Shown here piece after piece: positions 36,477-54,600 of a DNA stretch of 64,000 nucleotides. Position numbers and translations under genes: made by a program. Numbering within the stretch: the first letter of the stretch is position 1; every line of letters begins with the position of its first letter. The DNA is taken from the IMG/VR virus record IMGVR_UViG_3300002520_000085, positions 1 through 64,000 of that record, one strand, 5' to 3'. The notes beneath the pieces were generated by a model. That model saw only the letters and a list, made by a program, of their open reading frames with translations. It was not told the origin of the DNA and ran no database searches. The DNA comes from a virus.

Positions 36477-36515
36477 GTAAAATAAAAAATCACACTAAAA
36501 GCGTGATTTTTATTG

Positions 36516-36588: not shown

Positions 36589-36610
36589 AATTTTGTTTCC
36601 AAAATTATTG

Positions 36611-36647: not shown

Positions 36648-36666
36648 CGAGTTTATATTAAAATAG

Positions 36667-36740: not shown

Positions 36741-36832
36741 GTTTTAATATATTCTAAACTGAAAGCTGAGAGAAAAGCTACTCTGCACCAAATTCAGCAG
36801 TAAAAAATTATCTTATAATAAGAATAATTTTG

Positions 36833-36905
36833 AGCGGAAGACGGGGGTCGAACCCGCGACATTCAGCTTGGAAGGCTGACGCTCTACCAACTGAGCTACT
36901 TCCGC
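36833..36905 (-). tRNA. tRNA-Gly (TCC), copy 2
   Basis: Identical to copy 1. Confidence 0.8.
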
Positions 36906-36930
36906 AATTTTGTTTCCAAAATTATTGGGT

Positions 36931-36967
36931 TACAGTCAGTCCCATTTAGCCACTCTGGAATCTCCCC
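36931..36967 (-). pseudogene. truncated tRNA-Tyr remnant, copy 2
   Basis: Identical to copy 1. Confidence 0.5.
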
Positions 36968-36984
36968 GAGTTTATATTAAAAAG

Positions 36985-37058
36985 AGCTTCCAGAGGGATT
37001 CGAACCCACGACCCCGAGATTACAAATCACGTGCTCTGGCCAACTGAGCTATGGAAGC
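36985..37058 (-). tRNA. tRNA-Thr (TGT), copy 2
   Basis: Identical to copy 1. Confidence 0.6.
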
Positions 37059-38767: not shown

Positions 38768-39170
38768 GGGGTTGACTGGTTTCGACAGCAAGACCAATGG
38801 GTAAGTAAGCATGCAGAGAACCGTAGCGCGATCTCTATAATCCCTTGCTACAAAATTTTAACTGGCAACGAAGAGTTCGCTCTTGCAGCTTAATAATTGA
38901 AGTTTAGTAGATTCAAGCGTTTTCCCGAAGATTTTAGTAAGGAAGCAAGATGTTCCACAAATGCTCTGTTCTGCGGCGTTTGATTCTGGAATATAGGAAT
39001 GCGGAAATAAGTCTTATCTCGCTTCGCGATACGATCGAAAATCTTAGAAGATAAGCTGAAAGTTGGGTGTCTACTCTCTGCTTTCAGTCGAAAATAAATA
39101 GTAGAATAAGCATGTAGAAATCTTATGTATTGCTTGTTTGGACGAGGGTTCGAATCCCTCCAACTCCACA
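38768..39170 (+). ncRNA. ssrA: tmRNA (transfer-messenger RNA), tag peptide ...GNEEFALAA
   Basis: 5' GGGGTTGACTGGTTTCGAC pairs with 3' CAACTCCA. tRNA-like T-arm GGACGAGGGTTCGAATCCCTC. In-frame tag reading frame ctggcaacgaagagttcgctcttgcagcttaataa. Confidence 0.85.
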
Positions 39171-39173
39171 AAA

Positions 39174-39206: not shown

Positions 39207-39210
39207 ATTA

Positions 39211-39234
39211 TTAGGTGCTAAATTAGGTGCTAAT
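39211..39234. repeat. 24-bp direct repeat TTAGGTGCTAAATTAGGTGCTAAT (left copy), candidate att or integrase arm site of the tmRNA-associated element
   Basis: 23/24 identical to 58193-58216, ~19 kb away, at the opposite end of the integrase-bearing island. Confidence 0.55.
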
Positions 39235-39256: not shown

Positions 39257-39955
39257 TTAAGACAGGCTTCTTTCCAGATTTAGTTTTATTTTCTCCCAGC
39301 TAGGTAATACTTCGGCTAATGTTCTATAAAAATCTTTTGAATGATTGGGATGAATTAAATGGCAAAGCTCGTGCAGGATAACATACTCTATACAAGCCTT
39401 ATTTGCTTTTATCAACTCTGTATTCAATATGATATTGCCATTCATTGAGCAACTTCCCCAACGTTTTTTCATAAACCGATGAGTGAGTTTTATGTCATAA
39501 GTATTAAACTGTGGAAACTGAGAAAGTAATTGATCTAGCAATTCTTTGAAAACACTATCCGCCTTGCTTTTATAAAATTTTTGAATGATTTGTTCTATAT
39601 TATCATTTTTAGTTGTGATGGTAAACAAACCTTTCCCTAAATTAATATTGGTTTTATTTTGTTCCGTTTTATTAATCACCAATTTATACTGCCTTCCTAG
39701 ATAACGATGGGTTTCTCCAGGAATATATAATCTTTTTTTGGTAAATGGTCTGAACAATTCAAATGTGCGTTGTTGTTGCAAAATCCACTTAGATTTTGGT
39801 TTTATTTTTTCTACAATTTTTTCTATTGATGTATTTTTAGGAACTGTAATCTGGATATTACCTTCTGGAAAAACTCGTAAATCCATCGTCTTTCTGTCCG
39901 AATAAATAACTTCTGCTTCGATATTTTTCTTACCGTACTTATATTCAATCTTCAT
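39257..39955 (-). CDS. DUF45/M48-family zinc metallopeptidase (YgjP-like), Type I R-M associated
   Basis: HEXXH motif VILHELCHLIHPNHS; 232 aa; stop is 2 nt from the hsdR start. Confidence 0.65.
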   Translation of the reverse strand: MKIEYKYGKKNIEAEVIYSDRKTMDLRVFPEGNIQITVPKNTSIEKIVEKIKPKSKWILQQQRTFELFRPFTKKRLYIPGETHRYLGRQYKLVINKTEQNKTNINLGKGLFTITTKNDNIEQIIQKFYKSKADSVFKELLDQLLSQFPQFNTYDIKLTHRFMKKRWGSCSMNGNIILNTELIKANKACIEYVILHELCHLIHPNHSKDFYRTLAEVLPSWEKIKLNLERSLS

Positions 39956-39957
39956 CC

Positions 39958-42900
39958 TTAATCCATTTGCTTTTTAGCTATTTTAATCACTTCTTCTACA
40001 AAGTCATCTAAAATATCAAAAGGAATTTGATGATCCATTTCCAATGATAAGCTATAAAAATAGTCATCTAATTCACTCCAAATTTGCTTTTCAATTTCTT
40101 TGTTCAACTTCCAGTCAACGATAGCTCTATTGTTTTCTCTAGTTATATTTTTTATTAATTCTTTAATTTTTAAAGCAATTTCAGCATTTTGCAATCTATC
40201 TCCTAAAAATGTAAACAATTTCGCATTTATAAAATTATAAAATGCTACCGCTATTTTGTTTCCTTCAATTATTACTGGTACATCGTCTTGTTTTCCTGAT
40301 TGGAATCGTTCTTCAAAATCTTTCATTTTGTTTAGATATTCCGTTTCGTCAATACGACTTTGCTTATAATCCAAAATAGTTTCTTTTATTAACTCTGAAA
40401 GTTTTTTATAGAAAATAGGATCCTCATCCATTTTAATGGAAATCCCTTTTGAAGTACGTGCAGCAATATGATCTGCCTTTGCTGCTTTACCAATTAACTT
40501 TTCTACTTCTTCATCTCTCTCTTGTTTATTAAAAATATCAATAGGTTCTGTTATTCTTAGAACTTCACCATCTGTCGTAATGTGCTTATCAATCAGTTTT
40601 TGAACTTGAGTTTCATAAGCTTTAAAATCGATTTCATCATAGTACCTGCGTTTAACATCAATTCTTAACTGCACAAAAAACTTAATATCTTTTTTATACT
40701 TTTCAATAACAATATCATTTTTCACATCATTAAATTCTATGGTTGCCATTGCAAGACCAAAGAGCCTAACAAATTTGGATAGTTTTTCGTAAAATAAATG
40801 ACGTTGTTCTTCATCCCCTAAATGAACCGCATAAGCTTCGGTGTCGTATTTGTTTTTTATTCCTGAAAAAATATTCCAAACCTCTGAATGCGATTGTGGT
40901 AAATCTTTAATAATATCCTTTACATTCGTTACCGAACCTTTAACATCCTCTGGGTTCATTTCATCAGATCCGGAATAGATTTCTATTGCTTTATCTAAAT
41001 TTTCCAGGTTACCATAGTAATCTACAATTAGTCCATAATCTTTACCTTCAGCCAATCTATTAACTCTAGCAATCGCTTGCAAAAGAGTATGTTCCTTTAA
41101 GCTTCTTGTTAAATAAAGAACTCTATTTTTAGGAGCATCAAAACCTGTTAATAATTTATCTACTACAATAATAATTTCAGGATCATCTTGTTTCTTGAAA
41201 GCATTAATTATAGACTTTTCGTATTTTTCTTGAGTACCATATTTATCCATCATTGCTTTGTGAAATGATAAGACTAAATCTTCGTTTTCCTCAAAAGCAT
41301 CTTCGTGATTCTCACGAGTATCAGGAGCAGAAATAACAACATCTGAAGTCACCTTACCAATCTCATTAAGATATTTGCGGTATAAAATAGCTGTTGTCTT
41401 ATTAGGTGCCACCAACTGAGCTTTAAAACCAGTACCTTGAATGAAATTGACAAAATGCTCTGTTATGTCCCAAGCTCTATCATAAATTACTTGGTCTGCT
41501 TTATTAATGGCATTTTTGGAACTGTATTTTCTTTTTAAACCCGCTTTTCCATACTTCGTTAATGGTTCTGCTACTTTCTCAAAGAAATTATCAAGAGGCT
41601 TCTCATTTACAGTAATAGAATTGTGACGCCCTTCATAAAGTAAAGGAACGACAGCCCCATCTTCTACCGCATCTTTAATTGTATATTCATCTATTACCCC
41701 ACCAAATTTATCTGCTGTATTTTTTTCAGACTTCATTAAAGGCGTCCCAGTAAATGCAATAAAACATCCATTGGGGAAGGTTTTCTGCATTTTGACATTG
41801 AACGTTTTGTACTGACTACGGTGACCTTCGTCTATTAATACAAAAATCTCCGAAGAAGAAAACCCATCTGGCTCTTGATTGACTGCGGCTTTGAACTTAT
41901 TGATAATGGTAGTAATAACCGCATCTGACGTACTTTTCAATAATTCTATAAGATGCTTACCTGTGGCCGCTTCTTCCACAGGAATATTGCATTTCTGAAA
42001 AGTTTCTGTAATTTGAGAATTAAGATCTATACGGTCTGTAACTAATATTATTTTAGGATTTTTAATTTTTTTGCTCAAAGCAATTTGTTCCGCCAACATT
42101 ACCATTGTCAGCGATTTACCACTCCCTTGTGTATGCCAAATAACACCACCTTTTCTCTTACCAGAAGCCCCAATATCTTCAATTTGCTTAATGGTTTTTG
42201 TTATTCCATAATATTGCTGATATCTTGCTATCTTTTTAATACCTTCATCATATAGAATAAAACTAAACATCAACTCCAATAACCTTTTGGGATCACAAAT
42301 ACTGTATAGTAATTTGTCTTGTTCAGTAACCGCTACTTCTAACTTACCCAATTCTTTGAAATGCTTGATTGTGGGCCAATATCTTGTTTTAAAGATCTCT
42401 GTATGGCTATCGGTTGGCAGCTCTTGTTGTTTTAGATCGAATAAATTTTGAAAAAAAGACGCCTCTTTTTTAGCACTCGTAAACTTTTCTTTCCAAACCG
42501 ACCAGAATTTTGCAGGCGTAGCTGTTGTAGCATATTTAGCATCGCTTACCGCAAGTGATAAAAGTATATTAGAATAGACATATAAATCTCTGATACCATC
42601 TTCTTGTTGGTTGCGCAAATGTTGAGAAATCCCTTCTTCTACAGGCTGTTTTATCGAATTAGACTTACACTCTATAACCACCATAGGAATACCGTTTATA
42701 AACAGTACAATGTCTGGTCTATAACTGTCTGAACGATTAGAACGTGTTACCGAAAACTCCTCTGATACATGATAAGAATTGTTTTGTGGGTTTTCCCAGT
42801 CGATGTACTTGAAAGAATAGCTTTTACGGTCTTGATTAATGGTTTGGTCGAAACTTTTACCTAAAGTAATTAAATCATAAAAATGCTGGTTGGCATTAAT

Positions 42901-43167
42901 AAAACCCAGATGAAGTGGCAATTCTTTTAAAGTTTCGATAGCCAAGTCTATGTTACTCTCTGAAAAGTCGTGAGTCTGCCCTTTATAATCTATTTTATTG
43001 TTTTTTTTGAGCTGTTCTCTAAGTATATCGGTGAGGATTACATTCGTTTTTCTGTTGTCACGAAGCTCTAAAGCTTGATCGGGAGCTATATAAGTATAAC
43101 CCATTTTTATCAGCATTTGCAATGCTGGTATTTGACTTATATGATCTTCTGTGTATGATGGTGTCAT
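39958..43167 (-). CDS. hsdR: Type I restriction enzyme R subunit (HsdR)
   Basis: Walker A GSGKSLTMVMLAEQ, DEAH-box VLIDEGHRSQ, helicase motifs, 1069 aa. Confidence 0.9.
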   Translation of the reverse strand: MTPSYTEDHISQIPALQMLIKMGYTYIAPDQALELRDNRKTNVILTDILREQLKKNNKIDYKGQTHDFSESNIDLAIETLKELPLHLGFINANQHFYDLITLGKSFDQTINQDRKSYSFKYIDWENPQNNSYHVSEEFSVTRSNRSDSYRPDIVLFINGIPMVVIECKSNSIKQPVEEGISQHLRNQQEDGIRDLYVYSNILLSLAVSDAKYATTATPAKFWSVWKEKFTSAKKEASFFQNLFDLKQQELPTDSHTEIFKTRYWPTIKHFKELGKLEVAVTEQDKLLYSICDPKRLLELMFSFILYDEGIKKIARYQQYYGITKTIKQIEDIGASGKRKGGVIWHTQGSGKSLTMVMLAEQIALSKKIKNPKIILVTDRIDLNSQITETFQKCNIPVEEAATGKHLIELLKSTSDAVITTIINKFKAAVNQEPDGFSSSEIFVLIDEGHRSQYKTFNVKMQKTFPNGCFIAFTGTPLMKSEKNTADKFGGVIDEYTIKDAVEDGAVVPLLYEGRHNSITVNEKPLDNFFEKVAEPLTKYGKAGLKRKYSSKNAINKADQVIYDRAWDITEHFVNFIQGTGFKAQLVAPNKTTAILYRKYLNEIGKVTSDVVISAPDTRENHEDAFEENEDLVLSFHKAMMDKYGTQEKYEKSIINAFKKQDDPEIIIVVDKLLTGFDAPKNRVLYLTRSLKEHTLLQAIARVNRLAEGKDYGLIVDYYGNLENLDKAIEIYSGSDEMNPEDVKGSVTNVKDIIKDLPQSHSEVWNIFSGIKNKYDTEAYAVHLGDEEQRHLFYEKLSKFVRLFGLAMATIEFNDVKNDIVIEKYKKDIKFFVQLRIDVKRRYYDEIDFKAYETQVQKLIDKHITTDGEVLRITEPIDIFNKQERDEEVEKLIGKAAKADHIAARTSKGISIKMDEDPIFYKKLSELIKETILDYKQSRIDETEYLNKMKDFEERFQSGKQDDVPVIIEGNKIAVAFYNFINAKLFTFLGDRLQNAEIALKIKELIKNITRENNRAIVDWKLNKEIEKQIWSELDDYFYSLSLEMDHQIPFDILDDFVEEVIKIAKKQMD

Positions 43168-43203
43168 TTATAATATTGGTTTGGTTCAATAGTATTTTTA
43201 TAA

Positions 43204-44337
43204 TTATGCTGATTGATGAACAATATCAATCGCTTTCACAAAACCTCCAAGTTCTCTATTTTGGTCGAATATAGTCATCGATAAATCTGCTTTAGGCATC
43301 CACACACGACCTAGTTGAACAGCTAAAGAAACAGGCATTGCAGGAAAAATATTTAATATAGCTTCTTGACCGTGTAATCTTTTAATTTCTCTATAAGCTT
43401 CTTTCATTTTTTCTCCAAAATCTGTAATCTGTTTACGTGATTTTACGAAGTCGTTATCCGGATGATCTATTTTGATGCTGTATATAGAGGTATCATCTCC
43501 TAAAACAGAAGTTATACGATCATCTGTAATTGTATCACTTAATTCAATCTTTAAAGCAATATTTGTTTTGACTTCTGCTGCTAGTTCTAAGTTATATACC
43601 GTATCGATATCAGCTTCAAAATTCCAAGTATCTGGATTTCTCCTTTTTTGACGTACATCTACAGAATAGATATCATTTAACATTGTTCCTAATTTCATTA
43701 AAATAGGCATAGGCCCAAATGGAAACAATGAAATATGCTTTATCTCTCCACTGTTTAATAATGGAAATAAAAAACGTTCAAATTTTTGATTAAGATTCCT
43801 TAATTCATCAATCCAAAAATTTGGATCTGAATCTTTATTTAAAGAATTAATGACCCCTAAATCAATATTTTTAGCTTCGGCTGGATAATAATCAGGAGCT
43901 AAAAATTGACTAACAATACTATATTGAACATTGGGTGTGTGAACTCCGATATTCATATTCAATGTTACAATATGACTTTGTTTATCTGGAGCAATTGCAC
44001 AAGCATTTGCAATACGATTTTCGTGCTCCGTTTTCATTTCTACTAATAAACTTTCAGGATTACCTGCAACATCATCCCTATCAATCAAGCGATGGTGTGT
44101 ATCGCATAATAACATTAAATTTGAAATATCATCGGCCAATTGTACAGATCTTGTACTACAACCACGTGGTCCACCTGGACTATCGGCCACGATATGAGCT
44201 ATATATGATTGATTGAAATTTCTTTTCGTTAAAATGTCAGTATGTAGAATTTTATTACAACCTCTGTATTGGCATCTACCACCAGAGATAGACCAAAGCA
44301 TGTATTTATTTTTATCTGAAATAGATGTCACACTCAT
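43204..44337 (-). CDS. HNH nuclease fusion protein (N-terminal HNH, ~250-aa C-terminal domain of unknown function) between hsdS and hsdR
   Basis: CQYRGCNKILH...AHIVADSPGGPRG...NLMLLCDTHHRLID is a canonical HNH. ATGA overlap with the hsdS stop; 36 nt from the hsdR start. Confidence 0.65.
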   Translation of the reverse strand: MSVTSISDKNKYMLWSISGGRCQYRGCNKILHTDILTKRNFNQSYIAHIVADSPGGPRGCSTRSVQLADDISNLMLLCDTHHRLIDRDDVAGNPESLLVEMKTEHENRIANACAIAPDKQSHIVTLNMNIGVHTPNVQYSIVSQFLAPDYYPAEAKNIDLGVINSLNKDSDPNFWIDELRNLNQKFERFLFPLLNSGEIKHISLFPFGPMPILMKLGTMLNDIYSVDVRQKRRNPDTWNFEADIDTVYNLELAAEVKTNIALKIELSDTITDDRITSVLGDDTSIYSIKIDHPDNDFVKSRKQITDFGEKMKEAYREIKRLHGQEAILNIFPAMPVSLAVQLGRVWMPKADLSMTIFDQNRELGGFVKAIDIVHQSA

Positions 44338-45533
44338 ACCGTACGTACTTTACCGGTTAATAATTGCTGCATTAATCCTTTCTTTTGAAGTTTTAAAGCC
44401 TCTAATTTTTGTTGGTATTGTTTTACTTCTTGGTTGGCTGTATTTAGGATTTCTGCAATGGCATTTTGTTCTTCTAATGATGGATTTGGTAAAATAATCG
44501 TTGAAAAATCATCGTAACTAATATTTTTACCGTCTCTGATACCAATTACAGCAACTGATAAGCGTCCAATTAAATCTTCACTTTTGAAATAATATTTATA
44601 AAAATCATCATTAATTGGATTAATCGATTTTAAAACAGTATAAGCTGGACTTACAAGTCCTGTATATTCAGAATATTCAATACCACCTTGGAATGATCTT
44701 AAGCTAATTACAAAATCACCTTTTTCAACTAATTTATATGTCTTTAAACTACCAGAAGGCATTGTTACACGAGTTTCAATCATATCTCGAGGAATCATAC
44801 CAAATTCTTGAGTTGCTGATAATAATACTGAATCCTCTGGGTTATTTTTTATCGAAACACTTTTAAAAAGTTCATTCGCTAAAGATTTTATAAATTCTTT
44901 ACCCTCAAATCCTTTCACGCGCTTTTTACCTGTCAACAACGAAAACGCTAACGCCTTATTTCTAGCTTCTAGTTTTTTGATAATGGAATCGGTTTCTTGG
45001 ATGGCTTTATCCCACGTAGACAATACATCGGCAATTTTTTGTTGCTCTGGTAGTGGTGGAAGTGGGATATCAAAATCATTAATTGCTTTTGTGTCCAAAA
45101 ATGGTTGTGCTGCACCAACAAATGCTTTTTGTTTTTGCTGTTCAATGTAATTTGATTGTAAACTTAAAAAGATATATGATTTATTTTGATTTGCATTTAC
45201 TCTAATTCTTGGGGCGTTATAGCTATGTGGCAAATTAAACCATTCACATTTAGGTAGAAAAACAGCTCCAGCTGTAGCACCAGTTCCTGCAAATAAAATA
45301 TCTCTCTCATTCAAAAGAAAGTTATTTATGTTTTCAAAATCTTTTATGTAAACTGGTTTATCTTCAAAAAAATCATTAATGCGTATAAAGCGTATGCCTT
45401 CTTCATTAACATATTCTAAATATTGAGAACCAGCACCTCTTTTAACTTGCCCAATATCTTTTATTTTTACTAATTCCCAATCTGTAGGGATAGGTCCGAT
45501 GGATGTATTTTTATATTGTGTTGTTTTTATCAT
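44334..45533 (-). CDS. hsdS: Type I R-M specificity subunit (HsdS), two target-recognition domains
   Basis: Conserved repeats LPPLPEQQKIADVLSTWDKAIQ and LPNPSLEEQNAIAEILNTANQEV, 399 aa. Confidence 0.85.
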   Translation of the reverse strand: MIKTTQYKNTSIGPIPTDWELVKIKDIGQVKRGAGSQYLEYVNEEGIRFIRINDFFEDKPVYIKDFENINNFLLNERDILFAGTGATAGAVFLPKCEWFNLPHSYNAPRIRVNANQNKSYIFLSLQSNYIEQQKQKAFVGAAQPFLDTKAINDFDIPLPPLPEQQKIADVLSTWDKAIQETDSIIKKLEARNKALAFSLLTGKKRVKGFEGKEFIKSLANELFKSVSIKNNPEDSVLLSATQEFGMIPRDMIETRVTMPSGSLKTYKLVEKGDFVISLRSFQGGIEYSEYTGLVSPAYTVLKSINPINDDFYKYYFKSEDLIGRLSVAVIGIRDGKNISYDDFSTIILPNPSLEEQNAIAEILNTANQEVKQYQQKLEALKLQKKGLMQQLLTGKVRTV

Positions 45534-45546
45534 TTTTGTAATGTTT

Positions 45547-46329
45547 TTATGCTAGGTCTTGGTCTGTAATCGTAAAAACAGACTTTATTGCATGTAGTGC
45601 ATCTTCGCTTTTTGCGCCTTTCATTCCCATTGCTTTAAACACATCGGGTGTAGGTAAATCCTCTTTTATCATTTTAAGGAATTCTATCATCAGCTCTTTG
45701 ATGGGTTTTGGCAATTCAAAACGCTCTTCTCCAGTAAATAGCAAAGCTAATTTGAGGCAATCGTTTTTATGCTTTTTTAGGTGTTTGCTGTCTTCTTTGC
45801 TTCCATTAGCAATACGCCCCGTAATGTCTAAATATGCTTTTGCCTTTAAAGCAATTAAAGCTTCTGTATTTGCACGATGCACATCTGACACGATCACACT
45901 ATGTTCTCTAATAAATTGATAGAAGGTGTCGTCTAATAAAATGGCAGATAAGCTACTTAAATCATCATCTGCCGGAATAGGCGTTAAGTGCATCTCAGGA
46001 TCTAATTCAATCAAATCTGGTTTACGTGAAAACAATTCTATCTGCTGTGGAAAATCTTCGTTTTCCGGATCCATAAATCGATAGTATTGGCGTTCGTCGC
46101 TGCTTATTTCTTTTCGGTTGTAATTGCCCTCTTTTATAAATTGCCAAAATTTTTTTAAGAATTCCGGATTTAAAGCTTCTATCACTAAAATGATGTCAAT
46201 ATCTTTTGTGGCACGAGCTACTAATCCTTCATCTTCTATTATCATATCGCAAGCAGTACCACCGATAATGATATAATTATCTGGAAACGCAGCAAAATAT
46301 GCTTTAAATTGTTCTATGCCTTTTACCAT
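45547..46329 (-). CDS. AbiEii/MenT-like (DUF1814) nucleotidyltransferase toxin candidate
   Basis: IIGGTACDMI...ATKDIDIILVIE fits the GGTAL...DIDF pattern of the AbiEii NTase family. 260 aa. 7-nt overlap with the upstream gene. Confidence 0.45.
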   Translation of the reverse strand: MVKGIEQFKAYFAAFPDNYIIIGGTACDMIIEDEGLVARATKDIDIILVIEALNPEFLKKFWQFIKEGNYNRKEISSDERQYYRFMDPENEDFPQQIELFSRKPDLIELDPEMHLTPIPADDDLSSLSAILLDDTFYQFIREHSVIVSDVHRANTEALIALKAKAYLDITGRIANGSKEDSKHLKKHKNDCLKLALLFTGEERFELPKPIKELMIEFLKMIKEDLPTPDVFKAMGMKGAKSEDALHAIKSVFTITDQDLA

Positions 46330-47366
46330 ATAAATCGATTGATTAAGTGTTCTAATTCCATTTGCACACGTTCGTCTTGATCTTCTTTATAGGTTAAGAA
46401 TAAAGAGATTGGATCGACCTTGTCGTATGCTGATTGACTGATTCTGTTGATGAAACTTGGATCGTATTTCCATATTTGAAATAGATATTCTCCACCAAAT
46501 TCATTGAATGTATTGGGTTGGTTATTCTTCTTGATTAAGTTAAATGTTTGATTATCTATAGCAAAAGCCATTTGATTGCTTGGGTTTATATTGGTGTACT
46601 CCGTTAAGGCAGTATTTCCTGCTTTTAATAATGGTAAATTCCAATTGAAATTATATGCTACAAAATACTCTTTAGCAATGGGATTGATAAAAATGTTGTT
46701 TTGTAGTCCTTTTTCCCACAATGTTTTTCTATCGAATTTGAATTGGAACATTTTATAACGACCACGCTGTACGATTTCTATTAATTCTAATTCGGCTAAA
46801 TTTTCGACTGCACGAGAAACGTTGATGGTATTTACCTGAAATTGGTTTGCAATTTCTTTTAATGGAATATCTTCGATTGTATATCGATTATTTGTATTCA
46901 GCAAATGTGCAATGACTAATACCTGAGCAAAAGGTTGCAAGGTTTGTGCAGTACGACCTTTTGTTTGGTATCTGTATTCTGTAAAATCGATGAATACGTA
47001 TGGTATATACAGTTGCTTAAACGGTACGATAAATGCTCGTTTTTTTTCGATTAATCGTTTACGATTATAGGCTTCCATTTCGTCCACACAAAGAATAATG
47101 GGTTGATTAATTCTTTCTTCAATATTTGCTAGTTGTGTGTCTATGGCTGCAATTGTAAACTCGTCATCCGTTTCTGCATAGGCAATGACGAATTTTTTAT
47201 TTAACATCAACAACTCGTACCACTCATAGGCATTACGTAAATATATGGGTAATTGATTAAGGATATCCTTGCTTAAAGGGCTTACCTCGCAATGAATTCC
47301 TATCGTTTCGTTGATGTAATTTTTTAGCTGAATCATAATACTAACATTAAAATTGCACGATAACAA
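46323..47366 (-). CDS. AbiEi-like / wHTH-containing putative cognate antitoxin-regulator
   Basis: wHTH-like KEIANQFQVNTINVSRAVENLAELELIEIVQRGRY; overlaps the downstream NTase gene; 347 aa. Confidence 0.3.
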   Translation of the reverse strand: MLSCNFNVSIMIQLKNYINETIGIHCEVSPLSKDILNQLPIYLRNAYEWYELLMLNKKFVIAYAETDDEFTIAAIDTQLANIEERINQPIILCVDEMEAYNRKRLIEKKRAFIVPFKQLYIPYVFIDFTEYRYQTKGRTAQTLQPFAQVLVIAHLLNTNNRYTIEDIPLKEIANQFQVNTINVSRAVENLAELELIEIVQRGRYKMFQFKFDRKTLWEKGLQNNIFINPIAKEYFVAYNFNWNLPLLKAGNTALTEYTNINPSNQMAFAIDNQTFNLIKKNNQPNTFNEFGGEYLFQIWKYDPSFINRISQSAYDKVDPISLFLTYKEDQDERVQMELEHLINRFIW

Positions 47367-47401
47367 ATATAATGTTATTATGCAGAAAAAGCGTTACTAA
47401 T

Positions 47402-48136
47402 TTAAAAATGAATTATTTTGTTGCAATCCTTAATTTCCGAAGACTTATCCAATTGATTGGTAATTAAGCTCGTGTTCCTTATATTTATCATCTCATTGGC
47501 TGTATGTGTATGACCATAAATCCAATACAGTGGTTGGTATTTTACAATCAAATCCTCTAAAGAAGATCCATAAACAGTACTGAAATTTTCTTGTTCCGGA
47601 ATAGATAACATTACAGGACAATGATGTGTTACTACGATGGTTTTACTGGGATTTGCAGTTTGAAATTTATGCTCCAAAAAACTCAATGCATCGTTATGAA
47701 ATGCATTATAATCGAACGCATCTATATAATCCTCTTGGTTTTTAATGTATTTAAAATCGTTGATGTGATATTGTAAAAACCATCTTTTGTTTAGGTCTAC
47801 ATTAGACCATAAAGTAGAGCAAATCAATTCATAATCCTCTAGCAACACCGATTGGTTATTGATTAAAAATACATTTTCTCGAATGGGAATATTACAGGAT
47901 TGATATGATTGGTAATCTGAGCCATAAAATTCATGATTTCCAGGAATCCAAAAAACTTTAGTAAAAGCCTGACTGATATGATCTAGAAAAAAATTAATTT
48001 GATCGATCTGGTTTAATGGTATAATATCGCCCGCAAGAACTAAATAATCCGCACAAGGTTGAACAGGATATTTTTTAAAAAACATCCTGTTGTTAAGTGA
48101 TTCTAAATGAAGATCTGAAATGTATTGTATTTTCAT
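47402..48136 (-). CDS. calcineurin-like metallophosphoesterase
   Basis: MPP motifs SDLHLE, LAGDI, GNHEF, VTHH, GHTH. 244 aa. ATGA overlap with the upstream 144-aa gene. Confidence 0.8.
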   Translation of the reverse strand: MKIQYISDLHLESLNNRMFFKKYPVQPCADYLVLAGDIIPLNQIDQINFFLDHISQAFTKVFWIPGNHEFYGSDYQSYQSCNIPIRENVFLINNQSVLLEDYELICSTLWSNVDLNKRWFLQYHINDFKYIKNQEDYIDAFDYNAFHNDALSFLEHKFQTANPSKTIVVTHHCPVMLSIPEQENFSTVYGSSLEDLIVKYQPLYWIYGHTHTANEMINIRNTSLITNQLDKSSEIKDCNKIIHF

Positions 48137-48570
48137 TATTTTTTTGAATTACCGTGTTCTACACCACCACCATGCCATTCGCCAGTTACTAACCAAATTT
48201 CGTAATGATATAGCCATTCTATTGCCCATGGAATAATTGTACTTGCAATCATTTTACCTTCATGCCACTCCTTATCTTTAGGATAATATAAACACAACTC
48301 TTGTAAATCATGATTGTATACATGCTTGAGTCTGGTTTCGTTTTCAGGTAAACTTAATTTCTCAGGATTAACAACAAATGTTTTTGGTTTGCTACTCACT
48401 TCATAAATTATCTTAACTGTATATTTATCTCCCAGAGGAGATGACTTTAGTACACCTTCCCAAGTAAATCCCTTATTCTTGTTAAGAATTAATTTCGATT
48501 CAGGATAATACTGTTTTAATAAACGTAGTTGTTCTTTTAAAGGTATTTTATTAATCTTCTTCAATACCAA
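48136..48570 (-). CDS. hypothetical 144-aa protein in the NTase-phosphoesterase cassette
   Basis: ORF overlapping both neighbours; no recognisable motif. Confidence 0.5.
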   Translation of the reverse strand: MVLKKINKIPLKEQLRLLKQYYPESKLILNKNKGFTWEGVLKSSPLGDKYTVKIIYEVSSKPKTFVVNPEKLSLPENETRLKHVYNHDLQELCLYYPKDKEWHEGKMIASTIIPWAIEWLYHYEIWLVTGEWHGGGVEHGNSKK

Positions 48571-49837
48571 AAAATTTATGGGGTTTAATAGAATTAATTG
48601 ATGTTAAACCAGCCGTAGCTGTACCCACAACTCCGAGTTTACGATCAATATTATTTTGTCCTGATTCCGTTAATAATCTACTACGATTAGCATACTCGCT
48701 AAACGTTTTAAGTACAGCATCTTTTCCGAATGAATTTTTAAGCGATTCAGAAATATTTTGCAATCCTGTTTTAGATTGCGCATCTCTTAAATCAGCTTTC
48801 ACTTGCTCTAACCATCTGTAAAAATTTTCACGTCTAACCGATCCTTCGTCGTTCCAACGATCTGCAAAATTTTCTTTCCTATTCGTAGGGTTGGAAATCC
48901 ATTCAACATCTTTGTTTAAGTTAGGATCAAAAACAAATTCTATTTCATCTTCCATACGATTAATTACCCCCCACAATGCATCAATTAACTCTTCTTCCTC
49001 TCGGTACGCACGAGCTGCTAAAGTTGTTATGATACAAGAAATAGGTTTTTGTTTTTTCACATCTTCATCTTGTTCATGAGTAAAATAAATATCACGATGT
49101 CTCTTTAAAAGTTGAACCACTTTTTGTAGTGGTAAACGTGCCTCTTGATACTCTGGTACAGGCTTTACAGCTTCATTCAATGAAAATGTTCTTTTTTTCA
49201 TCCCTTTAATTGTTTTAGCTATATTCATAAACCAAATAGCATACCCATAAGGATTGCTTTGTTTCCAAAATTCTGATCTAACTTCAGTATCATACCCACT
49301 CTCTTCTTTATCAGTAATACTTAATCGTAGTTGATCAAAATCCTCGTAACTATCCGCACTCATTGCCTTTTCCAATATGATTGCATAACCAGAAGATATT
49401 AATGCTGGTAAAATATCCATATGATATCTTTGATTCGCAGATTCAGTATTTTCTCTATAATTTAGTGTCCAACATCTACGTCCTTCTTCATCCAGCATTT
49501 CCCTATAGCGATCACTTTCTTTTAAACGATTACCTACAGCATTTTTTAAATGATATTGTGCCCAATTTTCTGGTTTTCTCTTGAATTCGCATACAACATC
49601 TAGATCGATATCATCATTAGGATCTATAGGCTGGATTGTTGTACCGATAATAAATGAACCTTGAGGTTTAATGTATGGCTGATAAACAGATAATGATGAA
49701 TTATCATTAGATAAAAATTTCCCGACTGCTTTATAACTTTGAATAGCAGCTTCATGTTGCGACTTAGAAATACTAAGATTTTTCACTAGAGTTTCTAGTA
49801 TTTCGTTAAATTGAAATTTGTGATTTGGTGTATTCAT
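48551..49837 (-). CDS. cGAS/DncV/OAS-like nucleotidyltransferase (CD-NTase-like)
   Basis: GSFIIGTTIQPIDPNDDIDLDVV (GS...DxD) and downstream HMDILPAL (third-Asp h-D-h-LPA pattern of OAS/cGAS-type NTases). 428 aa. 21 nt after the hsdM stop. Confidence 0.55.
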   Translation of the reverse strand: MNTPNHKFQFNEILETLVKNLSISKSQHEAAIQSYKAVGKFLSNDNSSLSVYQPYIKPQGSFIIGTTIQPIDPNDDIDLDVVCEFKRKPENWAQYHLKNAVGNRLKESDRYREMLDEEGRRCWTLNYRENTESANQRYHMDILPALISSGYAIILEKAMSADSYEDFDQLRLSITDKEESGYDTEVRSEFWKQSNPYGYAIWFMNIAKTIKGMKKRTFSLNEAVKPVPEYQEARLPLQKVVQLLKRHRDIYFTHEQDEDVKKQKPISCIITTLAARAYREEEELIDALWGVINRMEDEIEFVFDPNLNKDVEWISNPTNRKENFADRWNDEGSVRRENFYRWLEQVKADLRDAQSKTGLQNISESLKNSFGKDAVLKTFSEYANRSRLLTESGQNNIDRKLGVVGTATAGLTSINSIKPHKFFGIEED

Positions 49838-49858
49838 TATTAGTTTTTTTTAAAAAAT

Positions 49859-51388
49859 TTATATCAAATTTAATTCTTTAAGATATTGCTCCATCTTAGC
49901 TTCTGTTTCTGCTAATTGTTCTTTCAGGTTAACAATGTCTGTATGCACGTCTTTTATTTCTACTTGTGCTTCTTCCTCAAAAGTATCAATATAACGAGGG
50001 ATATTAAGGTTGTACTCATTATCCTTAATATCTTGAAGCGTTGCACGATAAGAAAATTTATCGGTAAGAACTTCACCTTTTTCGGTTTCTAAAGATGGAA
50101 GAGCTTTGAATTTTTTGAATTCGGCAACAATTTTATCAATGTTCGCATTGGACATTTTGTTTTGGTTTTTCCATGATTCAAACTCCGCACTCGCATCAAT
50201 AAACAATACGTCTTTATTTGCCCCTTTAGCTTTGTTGAATAAAAGAATAGCGGCAGGAATTCCTGTTCCATAAAATAAATTAGCCGGTAATCCAATAACT
50301 GCTTCTAGTAAATTTTCGTCTATTAATTGCTGACGAATTTTTCCTTCACTACTTCCTCTAAACAAAACACCGTGCGGAACAATAACGCCCACTTTACCTT
50401 TATCTTCGAAAGTAGTTTCTATCATATGCGTAATAAATGCGTAATCTCCTTTTGATTTTGGAGGCACACCACGATGGAAACGATTGAACTCGTCTGCTGC
50501 AGCCTGTTCTGCGCCCCATTTATCTAAAGAGAAAGGAGGATTAGCCACCACAATATCAAACTTCATTAAAGCATCTGCTTCTTTTAGTTGTGGATTATTA
50601 AGAGTATCTCCCCATTCGATTACCGCATTATCTTCTTCGTGCAAAAACATATTCATACGAGCTAAAGCCCAAGTAGAACCATTATTTTCTTGTCCGTACA
50701 ACGCATAATTTTTACCTTCGATTTCTTTTGCTACTTTAATGAGCAAAGAACCAGAGCCACAAGCAGGATCGCAAATACGGTCACCAGCTTGAGGATTTAT
50801 CAATTTAGCCAATAATGTACTGACTTCTGAAGGGGTATAAAATTCACCAGCTTTTTTTCCTGCTTCGCCCGCAAACATCGAAATCAAATATTCATAACTG
50901 TCGCCAATCACATCATTGTTTGCCAAATGCGAGGGCTCTAAATTAAGTTCTGATAAATCTGTTAAAAGATTTTTCAAGATTTGGTTACGTTGTTTAGTTG
51001 GACCAAAAGCCGTTTCCGAATTGAATGAAATACTACGAAAAACCATTGCCAGTTTTGAACGGTTTTCATCTTCCAATTTCGTTAAAGCGATGTCTATTAG
51101 TTCGCCAATGTTGCTTTCGTTTCGGTTTTCAAATAAAAAATCGAAAGAACTTTGTTCAGGTAAAAAGAAACGCTCCCGTTTTAATTGACGTTTTACCATA
51201 TCTTCGTTGCCGTCGTACTTTATTCTTAATTCATTGGCTTTCTCTTTCCATACGTCCGATAAATATTTAACGAAAAGCAAGGTTAAAATATAATCTTTAT
51301 AAGAGCCACTTCCCATTACAGGTCTTAGAGAATCACAAGCTTTCCAAACGATTCTATTAATGTCTTGTTGTGTTAGTTTTGTTTCCAT
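49859..51388 (-). CDS. hsdM: Type I R-M DNA methyltransferase subunit (HsdM), N6-adenine
   Basis: DPACGSGSLL (motif I) and VVANPPFS (motif IV NPPF), 509 aa. Confidence 0.9.
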   Translation of the reverse strand: METKLTQQDINRIVWKACDSLRPVMGSGSYKDYILTLLFVKYLSDVWKEKANELRIKYDGNEDMVKRQLKRERFFLPEQSSFDFLFENRNESNIGELIDIALTKLEDENRSKLAMVFRSISFNSETAFGPTKQRNQILKNLLTDLSELNLEPSHLANNDVIGDSYEYLISMFAGEAGKKAGEFYTPSEVSTLLAKLINPQAGDRICDPACGSGSLLIKVAKEIEGKNYALYGQENNGSTWALARMNMFLHEEDNAVIEWGDTLNNPQLKEADALMKFDIVVANPPFSLDKWGAEQAAADEFNRFHRGVPPKSKGDYAFITHMIETTFEDKGKVGVIVPHGVLFRGSSEGKIRQQLIDENLLEAVIGLPANLFYGTGIPAAILLFNKAKGANKDVLFIDASAEFESWKNQNKMSNANIDKIVAEFKKFKALPSLETEKGEVLTDKFSYRATLQDIKDNEYNLNIPRYIDTFEEEAQVEIKDVHTDIVNLKEQLAETEAKMEQYLKELNLI

Positions 51389-51389
51389 A

Positions 51390-51974
51390 TTATTTGCTAA
51401 AATTATTAATGATTTGATTGAACAATACTTGTTTTTTTTCTTTCAACTGTTCAAGAATTTCTATTTCTTTTTTATGAATTTTATACATATCTACAATTTT
51501 TTTCTGCATTTCCATCGAATGTATAGGAATTTCAAAATCTAACAACTCTTTCTTTCTTATCGATGGAATGGAACTTCCTGCGCTTACCTGATTAAAATAG
51601 GAAATACTTTTGGAGTGGTTTAAAATACACGTCACATAATCTGGTAAAACCACCGTTGAATCTACTTTTATAATATAGAAAATAGAAGAAGCAACAGCGT
51701 CTCCCATTTCTTTATCGTATTTAAAAGCAAAAAACTTCATTCCTTTGCTTACAAAAAGAATTTCATCCTGTCTAAGAAGGATATTTTCTGAAATTTCATC
51801 AGCATTTACATAAGAATCTACATTATTCAGATACATTCCATTGTCTGAAAAGTTTTTCACTTGCAGATAAGGAATCCCCTTTTTATTAGATGCTTTTATA
51901 TATTGCCCGAAACTTAAAGCACAAATGTTTTGCAACTTTGTTTTGGTAATTTTAATCATTGTAGAGTTTTTCAA
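51390..51974 (-). CDS. hsdS: half-size HsdS (single TRD plus conserved C-terminal repeat)
   Basis: IPSIRKKELLDFEIPIHSMEMQKKIVDMY...ILEQLKEKKQVLFNQII is the conserved HsdS region; 194 aa; stop is 1 nt from the hsdM start. Confidence 0.7.
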   Translation of the reverse strand: MKNSTMIKITKTKLQNICALSFGQYIKASNKKGIPYLQVKNFSDNGMYLNNVDSYVNADEISENILLRQDEILFVSKGMKFFAFKYDKEMGDAVASSIFYIIKVDSTVVLPDYVTCILNHSKSISYFNQVSAGSSIPSIRKKELLDFEIPIHSMEMQKKIVDMYKIHKKEIEILEQLKEKKQVLFNQIINNFSK

Positions 51975-52114
51975 ATATCATTTTGCAAATATAGAATTAT
52001 ATTTCTGAATTCACAAAATAATTTTTTGTAGAATTTTTCAAAAAAATACATTTTTCAAAAATCTATTCTAAATAATTTATGATAAAAAATAAAAAAAATT
52101 AATATTAAGAACAA

Positions 52115-53269
52115 TTACCTTCTTGGTTTTATGTTTTTTTGAACATTCTCTATTTCTTGTGATTGTCTATTATTATTCCCACCACCCAACAAATTCAAAA
52201 GATAAGCTGTTTTATTTGAATCCTTAAAAACCTCCTCAAAAGCCGAAACAGGAATTTGATTTTCTTTTGAAGTTTTTTCCAATATCTCAATCATTTTATC
52301 TTTTCGTTCAGCATCGTTTAAACTGTGAAGATTCGGAATTTTTATACTTTCTTGTATGATGGCTTTTTTAAGTGTGTTTTCTACAGATCCTAAATATTTT
52401 TTCTTTTCAACAGCAAAAGCCTTTTCATTGGTCAGGAGTGTGGAGTTTTTGCTTTTGAAAAAGAAAACTTCTTTTTTTAGACTTTCAATCTTGGTATTGA
52501 GTTCTGCTATCTGTTTCTCTTTGGAGTCCAGTTCTGTTTTATTTTTAAGAAGTTGAATATTATTTGTTTTGATTGCCTTTTTGTAGTTTTCAATGGTTTT
52601 GTCCGTTTTTATTTTCTGAAAACCAAGAAAATCGGATTCTTTAACAATTAAATCTTCAGATTTTTTAGACTCCACCTCTTGTTGCATTTGGCTGTATCGT
52701 TCCTCCAAAATTTTCAAATCTTCTTCCTTTTTCTTGATTTTAAATTCAACTGCTTCTAATCTTGCTAACGAACCTGAAATTCCTCTTTCCATTTCCAAAC
52801 ATTCCGCCGCTAAATCCTGCATTTTAGAATAGTGAAAAGATTGATGCTTTAGCATTTTTCCAGTTTCCAAATCTTGCCAATCTGCAACTAAATGAGCGTG
52901 ATAATTCGGTTTCCATTCTTTGGTGTCTTTATCATAATGACCTTCATCTTTATGTATGGCAATCTGAAAAATTCGGATTTTAAGTTCTTCTTCTAGTCTT
53001 TTTGACAAATTATGCAAATCCTGCATCGTCGTATTTTCTTTAATTACAACCACAGCTTCCCGAACTGGCATTGCATTTTTCTGTAATTTTCTTCCTGATT
53101 TTTCTTTGCAAAAAGCTTCTATTTTTAACAGTCGATCAGCAATCTTTTGTTCCATCCAATATTCATTTTTGTGAGTTAAATCTTTGCGGATGTAATCAAA
53201 AGATTTCTTTCTGAAATTATGAATTTCGGAATCAGATTTTACTACTTTAAAATTGATGGAAGTTTTCAT
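52115..53269 (-). CDS. MobV-family (Mob_Pre) mobilisation relaxase
   Basis: N-terminal relaxase domain with NYHAHLV histidine motif; coiled-coil C-terminus; 384 aa. Confidence 0.7.
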   Translation of the reverse strand: MKTSINFKVVKSDSEIHNFRKKSFDYIRKDLTHKNEYWMEQKIADRLLKIEAFCKEKSGRKLQKNAMPVREAVVVIKENTTMQDLHNLSKRLEEELKIRIFQIAIHKDEGHYDKDTKEWKPNYHAHLVADWQDLETGKMLKHQSFHYSKMQDLAAECLEMERGISGSLARLEAVEFKIKKKEEDLKILEERYSQMQQEVESKKSEDLIVKESDFLGFQKIKTDKTIENYKKAIKTNNIQLLKNKTELDSKEKQIAELNTKIESLKKEVFFFKSKNSTLLTNEKAFAVEKKKYLGSVENTLKKAIIQESIKIPNLHSLNDAERKDKMIEILEKTSKENQIPVSAFEEVFKDSNKTAYLLNLLGGGNNNRQSQEIENVQKNIKPRR

Positions 53270-53279
53270 TTTTATTTAA

Positions 53280-53420
53280 ATTTGATGTATTAAACCTGTA
53301 ACTTTTTTATTCAGGGTAACTAACAACCTGTATCTATTTTATACAGGGTAACTGATACCCTTGCTTTATTTTAAAAGGTTCTGGGGAATTAAACCTTGTA
53401 CTATTTTTTACAGGTTAAAG
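53280..53420. promoter_or_regulatory. oriT-like region with CAGGGTAACT / AACCTGTA repeats upstream of mob
   Basis: ttcagggtaactaacaacctgt...atacagggtaactgatacc...aaaccttgtact...tacaggttaaag. Confidence 0.4.
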
Positions 53421-53527
53421 CCTCGCAGAGCGAAGAAGAAACTTTGTTGGGAGAGCATCGACCTTCAAAGTTGCGAATGAGCTCCTAACTTCTGCGTGTA
53501 GTTGGTAAAAAATATCCGCACGCATAA

Positions 53528-54333
53528 TCAGCGTTTTCTTTTGTAAGTTTGATGAGCTTGATTGATTTCGTTTTCCTCCTGTTCTTGTTTTGGGTTCAAT
53601 TCTATCCGCTGTTGTTTTTCGATTTCAGTGTTATTTCTGAAAACGAAGTAGTCATTCAAATCTTTATGAAGAGCATAAATTTCGGAATGATCTTTTGCTT
53701 CGGGAAATGATTTCAGAATTTCATTTTTACAAGTTTCACCTGCTTTATCATTGTCTAAAAACAAATGGATTTCGGAATAATTTTTTAAATAGCCTTTAAA
53801 AAATGGTTTCATCTCCACAAAAGACAAAGCATCCATAAATCCTTCAAAAACGACTATTCTTTTTCCTGTTTCATTTTGACCTTGGCTTTCATTATTGAAA
53901 TTTACAATTGAAATATCCTTTTTCAGAACTGATCCTTTGTAAAAGGAATTTCTAAGCTCCCAACCTCCAGAAAAATTTTCAAAACCAATAGCGTAAAGTT
54001 TCTTTTCTCCAATGGTAAAATGAATTTCTTTAACTAACGGATATACTACTTTTGAAAGCCCTCTTTGATGAAGATAGCTTTTAAGATGTTCGTTATGGAG
54101 TTTTTTGATTTCGGTGATTTGATAATTTGGTTTTGAATTTATTGAATGAATAACATTCTGCTGTTGAAAAGAAGAAAAATTTTGCTTTTCTGCCCGAGTT
54201 TAAAAGAGGCTTGGGTTTCTGTGGAAAAAGGATTAAGATACCAAGCTTCTTTTTCATTTTGTTTCGTTGGATGGTGTCCGAGTGAAATAAGGACTTCTTC
54301 CAACTTTACAGAGTTGAATTGGTTGCAGTTCAT
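53528..54333 (-). pseudogene. degraded toprim/primase-like gene (fragments 54139-54333 and 53528-53836 in different frames)
   Basis: 53528..53836 carries the TOPRIM-like LFLDNDKAGE. The 54139..54333 fragment is primase-N-like. No intact ORF spans them. Confidence 0.4.
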
Positions 54334-54339
54334 AAGTGT

Positions 54340-54600
54340 AAAATGTTAGGGGTTGATTTTTGGAAATATTTTGATGAAATGATGAGAAAACCGTATAATG
54401 ATTTGACTGTAAGTAAAATACATTCTCATCAAAGTATCATCATCTCATCAAACTTCAAATTTTTTGCTCATCGGTCTTTCATCAAAAATCAAGGTTTTAA
54501 AATTTGATGAGGATTTTGATGAGATATAAATTGTTGATTTTCTTCTTATTATCAATTAATTCATCATTTCATCAAATTTTTGAAGAATAAAATCTTTTTT
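54340..54600. repeat. iteron-like TCATCAAA/TTTGATGA repeats (at least 8 copies, both orientations), putative element ori
   Basis: tttgatgaaatgatgag, catctcatcaaacttc, tttcatcaaaaatc, atttgatgaggattttgatgagat, ttcatcatttcatcaaattt. Confidence 0.55.

Follow-up and report, generated by a model that had tools for sequence, protein, structure and literature searches.

A predicted type II-short CBASS divided by hsdS within a conserved Type I restriction-modification scaffold of Bacteroidota

Here we describe a defence locus on a 64,000-nucleotide (nt) stretch of viral DNA (positions 1 to 64,000 of the IMG/VR record IMGVR_UViG_3300002520_000085; hereafter, the window), in which the genes of a Type I restriction-modification (R-M) operon at positions 39257-51974 are interleaved with other defence genes. 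Judged by sequence, three of the embedded genes, encoding a clade G nucleotidyltransferase of the cGAS/DncV-like kind (CD-NTase; CdnG), an E2 protein and the nuclease Cap5, make up one type II-short system for antiphage signalling by cyclic oligonucleotides (CBASS) that is split by the specificity gene hsdS. The locus is a real, conserved instance of a known phenomenon, the embedding of defence genes in Type I operons, and is distinctive in its hsdS-split CBASS. On balance, we favour the explanation that the Type I operon acts as a generic two-slot carrier for independent, mostly co-transcribed defence layers (restriction, abortive infection and toxin-antitoxin). Slot A would be the hsdM-hsdS interval, here occupied by CdnG, E2 and then a trio of further genes, and slot B would be the hsdS-hsdR interval, here occupied by Cap5.

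In the ORF list of the window, 11 co-directional, tightly packed open reading frames (ORFs) on the minus strand fill positions 39257-51974, exactly as laid out in a first-pass annotation of this DNA. Their junctions, from half-hsdS to the terminal DUF45 gene, measure +1, +21, -20, -1, +35, -7, +13, -4, +36 and +2 nt, and thus lie between a 20-nt overlap and a 36-nt gap. The array opens with a half-size HsdS with one target-recognition domain (51390-51974; likely start ATG 51959, giving 189 amino acids (aa)) and HsdM, the Type I N6-adenine DNA methyltransferase (49859-51388). These are followed by CdnG (48551-49837), the E2 protein (48136-48570), a calcineurin-like metallophosphoesterase (47402-48136), a 337-aa winged helix-turn-helix (wHTH) protein (46323-47336) and a 260-aa nucleotidyltransferase (NTase; 45547-46329). 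Full-length HsdS (44334-45533), Cap5 (43204-44337) and HsdR (39958-43167) come next, and the last scaffold gene encodes a YgjP-like (DUF45) HEXXH metallopeptidase (39257-39955; Pfam YgjP-like 4.8e-53). Pfam and PADLOC matches uphold the proposal, made in the same annotation, that defence genes are nested among the M, S and R genes of a Type I R-M operon. The checks attached to that proposal found no intrinsic-terminator-like minus-strand site in any intergenic gap, embedded genes of defence type rather than housekeeping function, and an embedded order that is kept in related genomes.

The annotation had divided the embedded genes into three modules, with the NTase and the 144-aa protein in one and the HNH fusion in another; because PADLOC and Protein Data Bank (PDB) matches name the cyclase, E2 and Cap5, these two modules are instead the halves of one predicted CBASS. 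CdnG, the CBASS cyclase (428 aa; PADLOC cyclase 7e-124; Pfam SMODS/DncV-like), matches a bacterial cGAS (9WOO, 2e-54) and Serratia SmCdnG (8HSB_A, 3e-39) in PDB sequence searches, and its catalytic residues G60, S61, D76, D78 and D141 do not vary across 18 homologues. An invariant Gly424 precedes a four-residue tail at its C terminus (...FFGIEED*). E2-only systems, in work by Yan and colleagues from 2024, reportedly conjugate the cyclase through such a C-terminal glycine. The E2-only protein (Cap2-short, 144 aa; PADLOC E2 1.1e-47) carries a precomputed Pfam E2-CBASS match on its identical copies and aligns with the E2 of the SmCdnG complex (8HSB_B, 7.8e-18), placing the candidate catalytic cysteine in LCLYYP opposite that of LCLFLP; Pfam and PADLOC searches found no E1 or JAB gene in the operon. 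Cap5, an HNH endonuclease-SAVED fusion and the CBASS effector (SAVED 1.3e-44, HNH_2; PADLOC effector endonuclease 5e-144), matches the Cap5 structure 7RWK at 2.5e-84. The system is not contiguous, as Cap5 lies four genes (4.2 kb) from E2 with hsdS among them; its parts nonetheless stand within one co-directional array.

An AlphaFold2 (AF2) model of CdnG has a low-confidence central region (~residues 151-235), which includes the sequence KPVPEYQE with its VPEY motif, and a disordered C-terminal tail. In clade G CD-NTases, a prohead-protease cut in a central disordered loop of ~30 residues activates the enzyme (bioRxiv 10.64898/2026.03.04.709575), and the modelled central region and VPEY motif are consistent with such a protease-triggered pathway.

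The R-M genes themselves have the sequence features of the Type I family, namely an NPPF motif in HsdM, a two-domain HsdS and an HsdR that combines a nuclease with a superfamily 2 translocase, and are predicted to be active. HsdM matches Pfam N6_Mtase (6.7e-105) and HsdM_N (1.6e-22), and its ANPPF motif is invariant in the hsdM alignment. Full-length HsdS has two target-recognition domains (Methylase_S 2.3e-29 in two stretches; PADLOC Specificity_I 3e-89), and its stop codon overlaps the start of cap5 by 4 nt. Alleles of 392, 399 and 409 aa with 40-69% identity occupy this position in operon copies that are otherwise 95-100% identical. HsdR, the restriction and translocase subunit (HSDR_N 4e-38, SWI2_SNF2 1e-77, T1R_D3-like), aligns with EcoR124I HsdR so that rpD...IECK falls opposite ryD...IELK, a stretch that we take to hold the nuclease residues D151, E165 and K167, and GSGKS and DEGH motifs are also present. 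A nuclease-dead HsdR with Cap5 as its surrogate was considered and rejected, as the D...ExK residues are present in this alignment. The half-size HsdS has a single Methylase_S stretch (Pfam 1.3e-6; PADLOC Specificity_I 2.5e-17), and precedes hsdM in every complete related scaffold and, among the metagenome loci (L099-L178, described below), in 74 of 80. Its divergence is that of a recognition domain (in L001, 62% identity compared to 94% for hsdM), and it may confer a second, palindromic specificity on the methylase. Most related scaffolds, whether or not they carry a CBASS, have YgjP only a few nt after hsdR.

The split order recurs across Bacteroidota. We searched one genome per species for CdnG relatives, which gave 80 loci, and determined synteny by tblastn. 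CBASS lies inside the Type I scaffold in 32 of the 80 species-representative genomes with a CdnG relative, and hsdS stands between E2 and the effector in 27 of these 32; the remaining embedded loci are cut before the effector (three) or hold the whole CBASS in one slot (two). The recurrent order, halfS-hsdM-[CdnG-E2]-hsdS-[effector]-hsdR-YgjP, was therefore found in 27 of 80 species, and its carriers include Flavobacteriales, Sphingobacteriales, Chitinophagales, Cytophagales and metagenome-assembled genomes of Bacteroidales. A 99% identical copy is present in Chryseobacterium sp. TY3 (L016), and an identical CD-NTase occurs on 21 metagenomic contigs in the same gene order with differing hsdS alleles. 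The whole order is also kept beside 75-85% identical cyclases in Chishuiella, Empedobacter and Sphingobacterium, and in the last two the position after hsdS is taken not by Cap5 but by a CBASS phospholipase (patatin; PADLOC 1.7e-92) and a GGDEF protein. Because Cap5 and the phospholipase alternate at this position, the gene after hsdS really is the CBASS effector. In its minimal form (L029, L031 and L036) the locus comprises eight genes with virtually no intergenic space, and in L003 hsdS (40% identity) and Cap5 (68%) were replaced together between flanks that are 99-100% identical.

Two further genes were seen around the effector position of relatives. The GGDEF protein (~250 aa), which follows the patatin effector (L015, 16442-17194; also L011, L024-L027 and L029), has many embedded and two stand-alone copies (L024 and L027) and no PADLOC match. 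An AbiT-like gene of ~320 aa (PADLOC AbiTii 3e-29) lies between hsdS and cap5 in the close relatives L014 (15538-16497), L016 (15457-16419) and L017, and is absent from the operon in the window.

The same R-M scaffold mostly holds other cargo. We scanned metagenomes with the hsdM alignment and recovered 80 loci whose hsdM is 55-75% identical to that of the window; nearly all keep the sequence half-hsdS, hsdM, gap, hsdS, gap, hsdR and YgjP. A split CBASS was found in one of these 80 loci (L103) and any CBASS-like gene in five more. Gaps of more than 600 nt occur between hsdM and hsdS in 39 of 60 loci and between hsdS and hsdR in 31 of 37, the commonest cargo being Fic/SoFic, RhuM, Bro-N, DUF3800, HAD and Schlafen-type genes. 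Most of this cargo matches PADLOC phage-defence-candidate models, which we infer to derive from the published embedding survey cited below (database copy dated 2023). Closely related scaffolds can hold different cargo: the R-M genes of L102 are 91, 88 and 77% identical to those of the CBASS-bearing L029, and its cargo consists of RhuM and Schlafen genes.

Conversely, the CBASS is found without the scaffold. Stand-alone CdnG relatives account for 48 of the 80 species loci and are interleaved with embedded ones in a neighbour-joining tree. In L027 (Flavobacterium quisquiliarum), CdnG, E2, patatin and GGDEF proteins are 91-96% identical to those of the embedded L026, and neither hsdM nor hsdR is present. 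A remnant of hsdS encoding its first ~125-130 residues survives between E2 and patatin (11727-12121), and this scar indicates that the CBASS left a split, R-M-embedded scaffold. Cassettes have also been exchanged between scaffolds, as L026 shares 91-92% identity in hsdM and 89-92% in hsdR with L044, L045 and L051 and only 50-55% in CdnG. The first-pass annotation had raised the possibility that the locus is functionally coupled; a scaffold that mostly holds other cargo, and near-identical CBASS parts outside it, speak against this.

Promoter-like sequences support one main promoter together with one internal promoter for the toxin-antitoxin-like pair. A candidate operon promoter, with the Bacteroidota -7 box TATATTTG at 51986-51993 (minus strand), lies ~27 nt upstream of the half-hsdS ATG at 51959, and a candidate internal promoter for the wHTH/NTase pair, also with the box TATATTTG, lies at 47364-47371 (minus strand) in the phosphoesterase-wHTH gap. 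As the window-wide count of TAnnTTTG is at chance (103 versus 98 expected), only the positions of the box and its conservation in relatives are informative. The box occurs at most 90 nt upstream of half-hsdS in 21 of 29 related loci, compared to ~5% expected, and in the phosphoesterase-wHTH gap in nine of ten. Before hsdM, cdnG, E2, hsdS, the effectors and hsdR it was found in only 0-1 of ~30 loci each (~5% expected). Elsewhere in the window, the same box precedes the transfer-messenger RNA (tmRNA) gene, rpsU, the transfer RNA (tRNA) array and an integrase gene. The window also has, 28 nt upstream of cdnG, a TAAATTTG box that lacks conservation (1 of 31 loci) and was not counted as a promoter. 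A sigma-70 promoter scan, which returned 64 sites versus 72 expected, was uninformative for Bacteroidota and was replaced by the TAnnTTTG box. Separately, a 20-nt sequence containing the internal -7 box (47364-47383, minus strand) recurs with one mismatch antisense in cap5 (44104-44123, plus strand). This inverted match is probably a coincidence because the cap5 copy encodes a conserved SNLMLLCD segment, although an antisense promoter within cap5 at 44104-44123 may be conceived of.

The metallophosphoesterase, wHTH protein and NTase genes travel as an autonomous trio. The phosphoesterase had been grouped with the cyclase in the annotation; it moves instead with the wHTH/NTase pair, including where there is no R-M or CBASS at all. 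The trio occupies other positions in L026, L044, L045 and L058, sits in an R-M scaffold without CBASS in L096 (6160-8768) and is found outside any R-M system in L097 and L098 (6186-8780) of Sphingobacterium, beside a Schlafen-type helicase. A role for the phosphoesterase as a degrader of the CBASS signal was rejected, since it moves with the pair and occurs without CBASS. The phosphoesterase gene (Pfam Metallophos 6.7e-14) provides the only PADLOC match within the trio, a partial one to the candidate PDC-S10 (6.9e-14).

The 337-aa protein is a putative antitoxin or regulator with a central MarR-like wHTH, and its frame is open to TTG 47366 (347 aa). It gave weak wHTH matches to HVO_A0114 (0.0013) and PADLOC AbiEi (5.5e-4), MarR matches in six of eight homologues, and only MarR/ZitR in a PDB profile search (E ~0.06). 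A Pfam search that included its homologues found no AbiEi match, and its earlier label as AbiEi-like is weak. In all loci, the last 7 nt of its gene overlap the NTase gene. The 260-aa protein and six homologues matched nothing in Pfam (DUF1814/AbiEii included), NCBIfam or PADLOC, and sequence and profile searches of the PDB gave no match. As sequence searches gave nothing, the protein was placed by structure prediction only. Its AF2 model (predicted local distance difference test score, 82.6) matches JHP933 at 6e-4 in Foldseek, the best fold matches include TglT/MenT3, MenT1, MenT4 and JHP933, and the motif IIGGTACD...TKDIDI is invariant. By modelled fold and catalytic motif, it is a Pol-beta-fold NTase of MenT/AbiEii-like type and a putative toxin. 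This NTase family comprises >7,000 database proteins at E<=0.001 that are almost unannotated, with no precomputed Pfam domain among the 120 best matches listed.

The trio resembles AbiE and MenAT, both of which are overlapping pairs of a wHTH protein and a Pol-beta-fold NTase with GG[ST]...DxD, and its own wHTH/NTase pair likely has a promoter of its own. It differs from them in that its NTase and wHTH protein match neither the AbiEii/DUF1814 nor the AbiEi family of Pfam at the sequence level, in that the wHTH is central rather than N-terminal as in the AbiE antitoxin, and in that a metallophosphoesterase gene always precedes the pair. The trio is one candidate for a new defence system.

Under the carrier explanation, the locus would work as follows. 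The promoter before half-hsdS would transcribe the whole array, and the second promoter would serve the wHTH/NTase pair. HsdM and HsdS, possibly including a half-HsdS dimer, would methylate host DNA, and HsdR would cut incoming unmethylated DNA early in infection, leaving restriction-escaping phages to be met late by the CBASS. E2 would prime or regulate CdnG via its C-terminal glycine, and the trigger would probably be phage prohead-protease cleavage of the central loop, as in E. coli CdnG. CdnG would then make a cyclic dinucleotide, by analogy with studied CdnG-Cap5 systems 3',2'-cyclic GMP-AMP (cGAMP), which is the known product of CdnG and activator of Cap5 (PMC8568899). Binding of this signal to the SAVED domain of Cap5 would lead the HNH nuclease to degrade DNA, and the infected cell would die. 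The trio would add a separate toxin-antitoxin or abortive-infection layer. The layers would share transcription and mobility and be mechanistically independent, and the splitting of CBASS around hsdS would be a consequence of the two-slot platform, held in place by recombination in the conserved R-M genes.

Several observations weigh against the carrier explanation. The link between CdnG-E2 and Type I systems is very strong and recurrent (32 of 80 in one scaffold family), the whole CBASS can also lie in slot A (L090, hsdM-hsdS) or slot B (L028, hsdS-hsdR), and other copies adjoin unrelated Type I systems (L019, L021 and L033). The split order outlasts cassette exchange over deep divergence, which a selected functional link would fit too, and L027 may represent a system in decay, not one that functions on its own. 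The absence of the box before cdnG is weak evidence because stand-alone CBASS operons mostly lack it as well (present in 3 of 46), and every functional step above is argued from homology. One rival is a guard model, in which CBASS, and perhaps the trio, would monitor the Type I enzyme, a block by ArdA- or Ocr-like anti-restriction proteins of a phage or plasmid would release or activate CdnG, Cap5 would kill the cell, and the interleaving with hsdS would reflect co-assembly. Its precedent is PrrC, which is embedded in a Type IC system and activated when the enzyme is inhibited (PMC12707154), and which is almost exclusively embedded in the survey (bioRxiv 10.1101/2024.01.29.577857). Also in its favour are the repeated ties of the CdnG-E2 clade to Type I R-M, in three embedded configurations and beside unrelated Type I neighbours, junctions of the translational-coupling type (hsdM-cdnG, 1-5 nt; hsdS-effector, -4 nt) and an overall correlation of CdnG identity with hsdM and hsdR identity (Spearman 0.69-0.72). 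We nevertheless regard the guard model as unlikely: with 48 of 80 relatives stand-alone, some of them interleaved in the tree, embedding is not near-exclusive; L027 has CBASS proteins of 91-96% identity to those of L026 and neither hsdM nor hsdR; nearly identical R-M scaffolds hold unrelated cargo; CdnG/E2 cassettes have been swapped between ~90% identical scaffolds; and a trigger independent of R-M has already been demonstrated for clade G cyclases. Slightly more doubtful still is the specific form in which CdnG-E2 is a dedicated Type I partner, with the hsdS-flanking order coupling its synthesis and assembly to the specificity and methylase subunits and the cyclase firing when the R-M complex is blocked or hijacked, for instance by ArdA/Ocr-type DNA mimics. 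If true, this would amount to a counterpart of the PrrC guard that acts by cyclic-nucleotide signalling and is conserved across Bacteroidota.

A closer fusion of functions, in which the Type I enzyme senses unmethylated DNA, its activity (translocation, stalled complexes or fragments) activates CdnG, and CBASS amplifies restriction into cell death, seems very improbable. Nothing argues for it except that the interleaved order is conserved and a single promoter is apparent, whereas HsdR has its D...ExK and ATPase motifs and needs no surrogate effector, the same CBASS parts form a unit in R-M-free settings, most members of the R-M family have no CBASS, and cell death at each restriction event would be costly. 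Embedding could alternatively have been selected chiefly for stabilising the cargo, with no biochemical link, as losing cdnG-E2 and cap5 would also remove hsdS, and the cargo would in addition gain the promoter and mobility of the R-M operon. Many unrelated cargo kinds in the same two slots, movement of whole arrays on mobilisable islands and the joint replacement of hsdS and effector in L003 fit this account. Type I systems are, however, weak addiction modules, as restriction alleviation tolerates the loss of methylation, and exit from the scaffold has happened (L027); we thus give stabilisation a low probability, and it overlaps the carrier explanation more than it competes with it. Finally, half-hsdS and full hsdS might form a shufflon for phase-variable specificity with the intervening genes as bystanders, given two hsdS-type genes in one operon and hsdS alleles that differ among near-identical copies. 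This was rejected as hardly credible: a repeat search of both hsdS genes found no direct or inverted repeats joining 51390-51974 and 44334-45533, the two lie on the same strand, profile searches of the operon proteins found no recombinase gene within the operon, and the allele differences are between strains rather than within the locus.

Defence genes in Type I operons are well established through 'guilt by embedding' (Payne et al. 2024, bioRxiv 10.1101/2024.01.29.577857). Embedded examples include DarTG2 between hsdS and hsdR in enteropathogenic E. coli (EPEC; PMC12255303) and TgvAB in the Type I cluster of Vibrio cholerae VPI-2 (PMC11411939), and PrrC and the rlo genes are further known Type I-nested cases. 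In the survey, DarTG2 and TgvAB, non-R-M defence genes likewise share the strand of the R-M genes, lie between hsdM/hsdS and hsdR and apparently use the R-M promoter, and these precedents support the idea of independent embedded layers. Survey candidates that match the cargo of the present scaffold are Fic/PDC-S04, RhuM/PDC-S05, Bro-N/PDC-S13, DUF3800/PDC-M04A and HAD/PDC-S34. Unlike these examples, the scaffold described here carries one multi-gene system over two slots with hsdS in the centre, conserved in 27 sampled species, and in the window one operon stacks three systems. CBASS goes unmentioned in the survey's main text (bioRxiv 10.1101/2024.01.29.577857).

Among known CBASS, the CdnG-Cap5 systems of Asticcacaulis and Lactococcus (PMC8568899), CdnG-E2 of Serratia marcescens (8HSB) and E. 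coli CdnG have homologous parts and share the GS...DxD...D motif, the E2 cysteine, the C-terminal glycine of the cyclase and a poorly ordered central region. In known type II-short systems the effector is adjacent, whereas here it stands behind hsdS; moreover, relatives of the present locus swap the effector for a phospholipase and GGDEF protein at the same position and have no recurrent promoter motif before cdnG (1 of 31). PrrC/EcoprrI is similar in placing a suicide effector inside a Type I operon near hsdS and hsdR, and differs in being almost exclusively embedded, compared to 60% of sampled CdnG relatives that stand alone, and in effector chemistry. An integrative and conjugative element (ICE) of Elizabethkingia carries Type I R-M and CBASS together, their order not being described (bioRxiv 10.1101/2024.12.10.627669). 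It is comparable in co-locating a CD-NTase system with R-M in Bacteroidota (Weeksellaceae), and the preprint describes no gene order, hsdS split, fixed-slot effector swapping or species breadth. Full-text literature searches, which did not extend to the 2015 study named next, yielded no account of an hsdS-divided CBASS, of fixed post-hsdS effector swapping, of a half-HsdS-led two-slot scaffold or of the phosphoesterase/wHTH/NTase trio. SMODS systems are sometimes combined with R-M, as is reportedly stated in the abstract of a 2015 comparative-genomic study by Burroughs and colleagues.

These findings have practical consequences for defence annotation. Some CBASS operons are non-contiguous, so where a tool requires cyclase and effector to be neighbours, the effector can be overlooked or the system scored as partial; likewise, a tool that handles the Type I R-M genes as a single unit can overlook the genes inside. 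The widespread Bacteroidota scaffold is a natural docking platform for defence cargo and is useful for finding new systems. It also provides a compact case of 8-11 genes in which to ask whether nested defence systems are merely co-expressed or wired as guards.

A 19.2-kb island, integrated at the 3' end of the tmRNA gene (ssrA; 38768-39169, plus strand, ARAGORN), carries the operon as its cargo. The left attachment repeat, a 22-nt direct repeat, coincides with the tmRNA 3' end (39148-39169, plus strand), and the right repeat (58325-58346, 22 nt) is 86% identical to it. Pfam matches define a mobility half at 52115-58346, all on the minus strand, with a relaxase-like gene (52115-53269), a disrupted DnaG-like primase remnant (53642-54184; ORFs of 64 and 102 aa versus a 284-aa gene in relatives), a DUF5906/VapE-like gene (54556-55794), an HTH_17 gene (55868-56146) and a tyrosine integrase (56952-58193). 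In L014, too, the operon is flanked by these mobility genes. Because the primase looks disrupted, the island may have lost the capacity for autonomous replication or mobilisation.

The annotation had placed the operon on a mobilisable element next to ardA, and the island bears out the former part. The ArdA anti-restriction gene (58529-59053, minus strand) lies just beyond the right repeat and is therefore part of a neighbouring element; a helix-turn-helix-fused C5 cytosine methyltransferase gene (61719-63230, plus strand) is also found beyond this repeat, in the neighbouring element. A 25-nt element, ATTAGGTGCTAA[A/T]TAGGTGCTAAT (a tandem of ATTAGGTGCTAA), occurs just inside both island ends (39210-39234 and 58192-58216), and the two copies may be arm-type sites of the integrase. 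A 93-aa ORF at 38890-39171 (minus strand) is probably spurious because it lies almost wholly within the tmRNA gene. Further to the left, a tandem tRNA array (Thr-Gly-Thr-Gly-Thr, 36404-37058) adjoins a second tyrosine integrase (35039-36256), and this region (35039-37058) suggests a second integrated element upstream of a block of rpsU, xerC-like and hpf genes.

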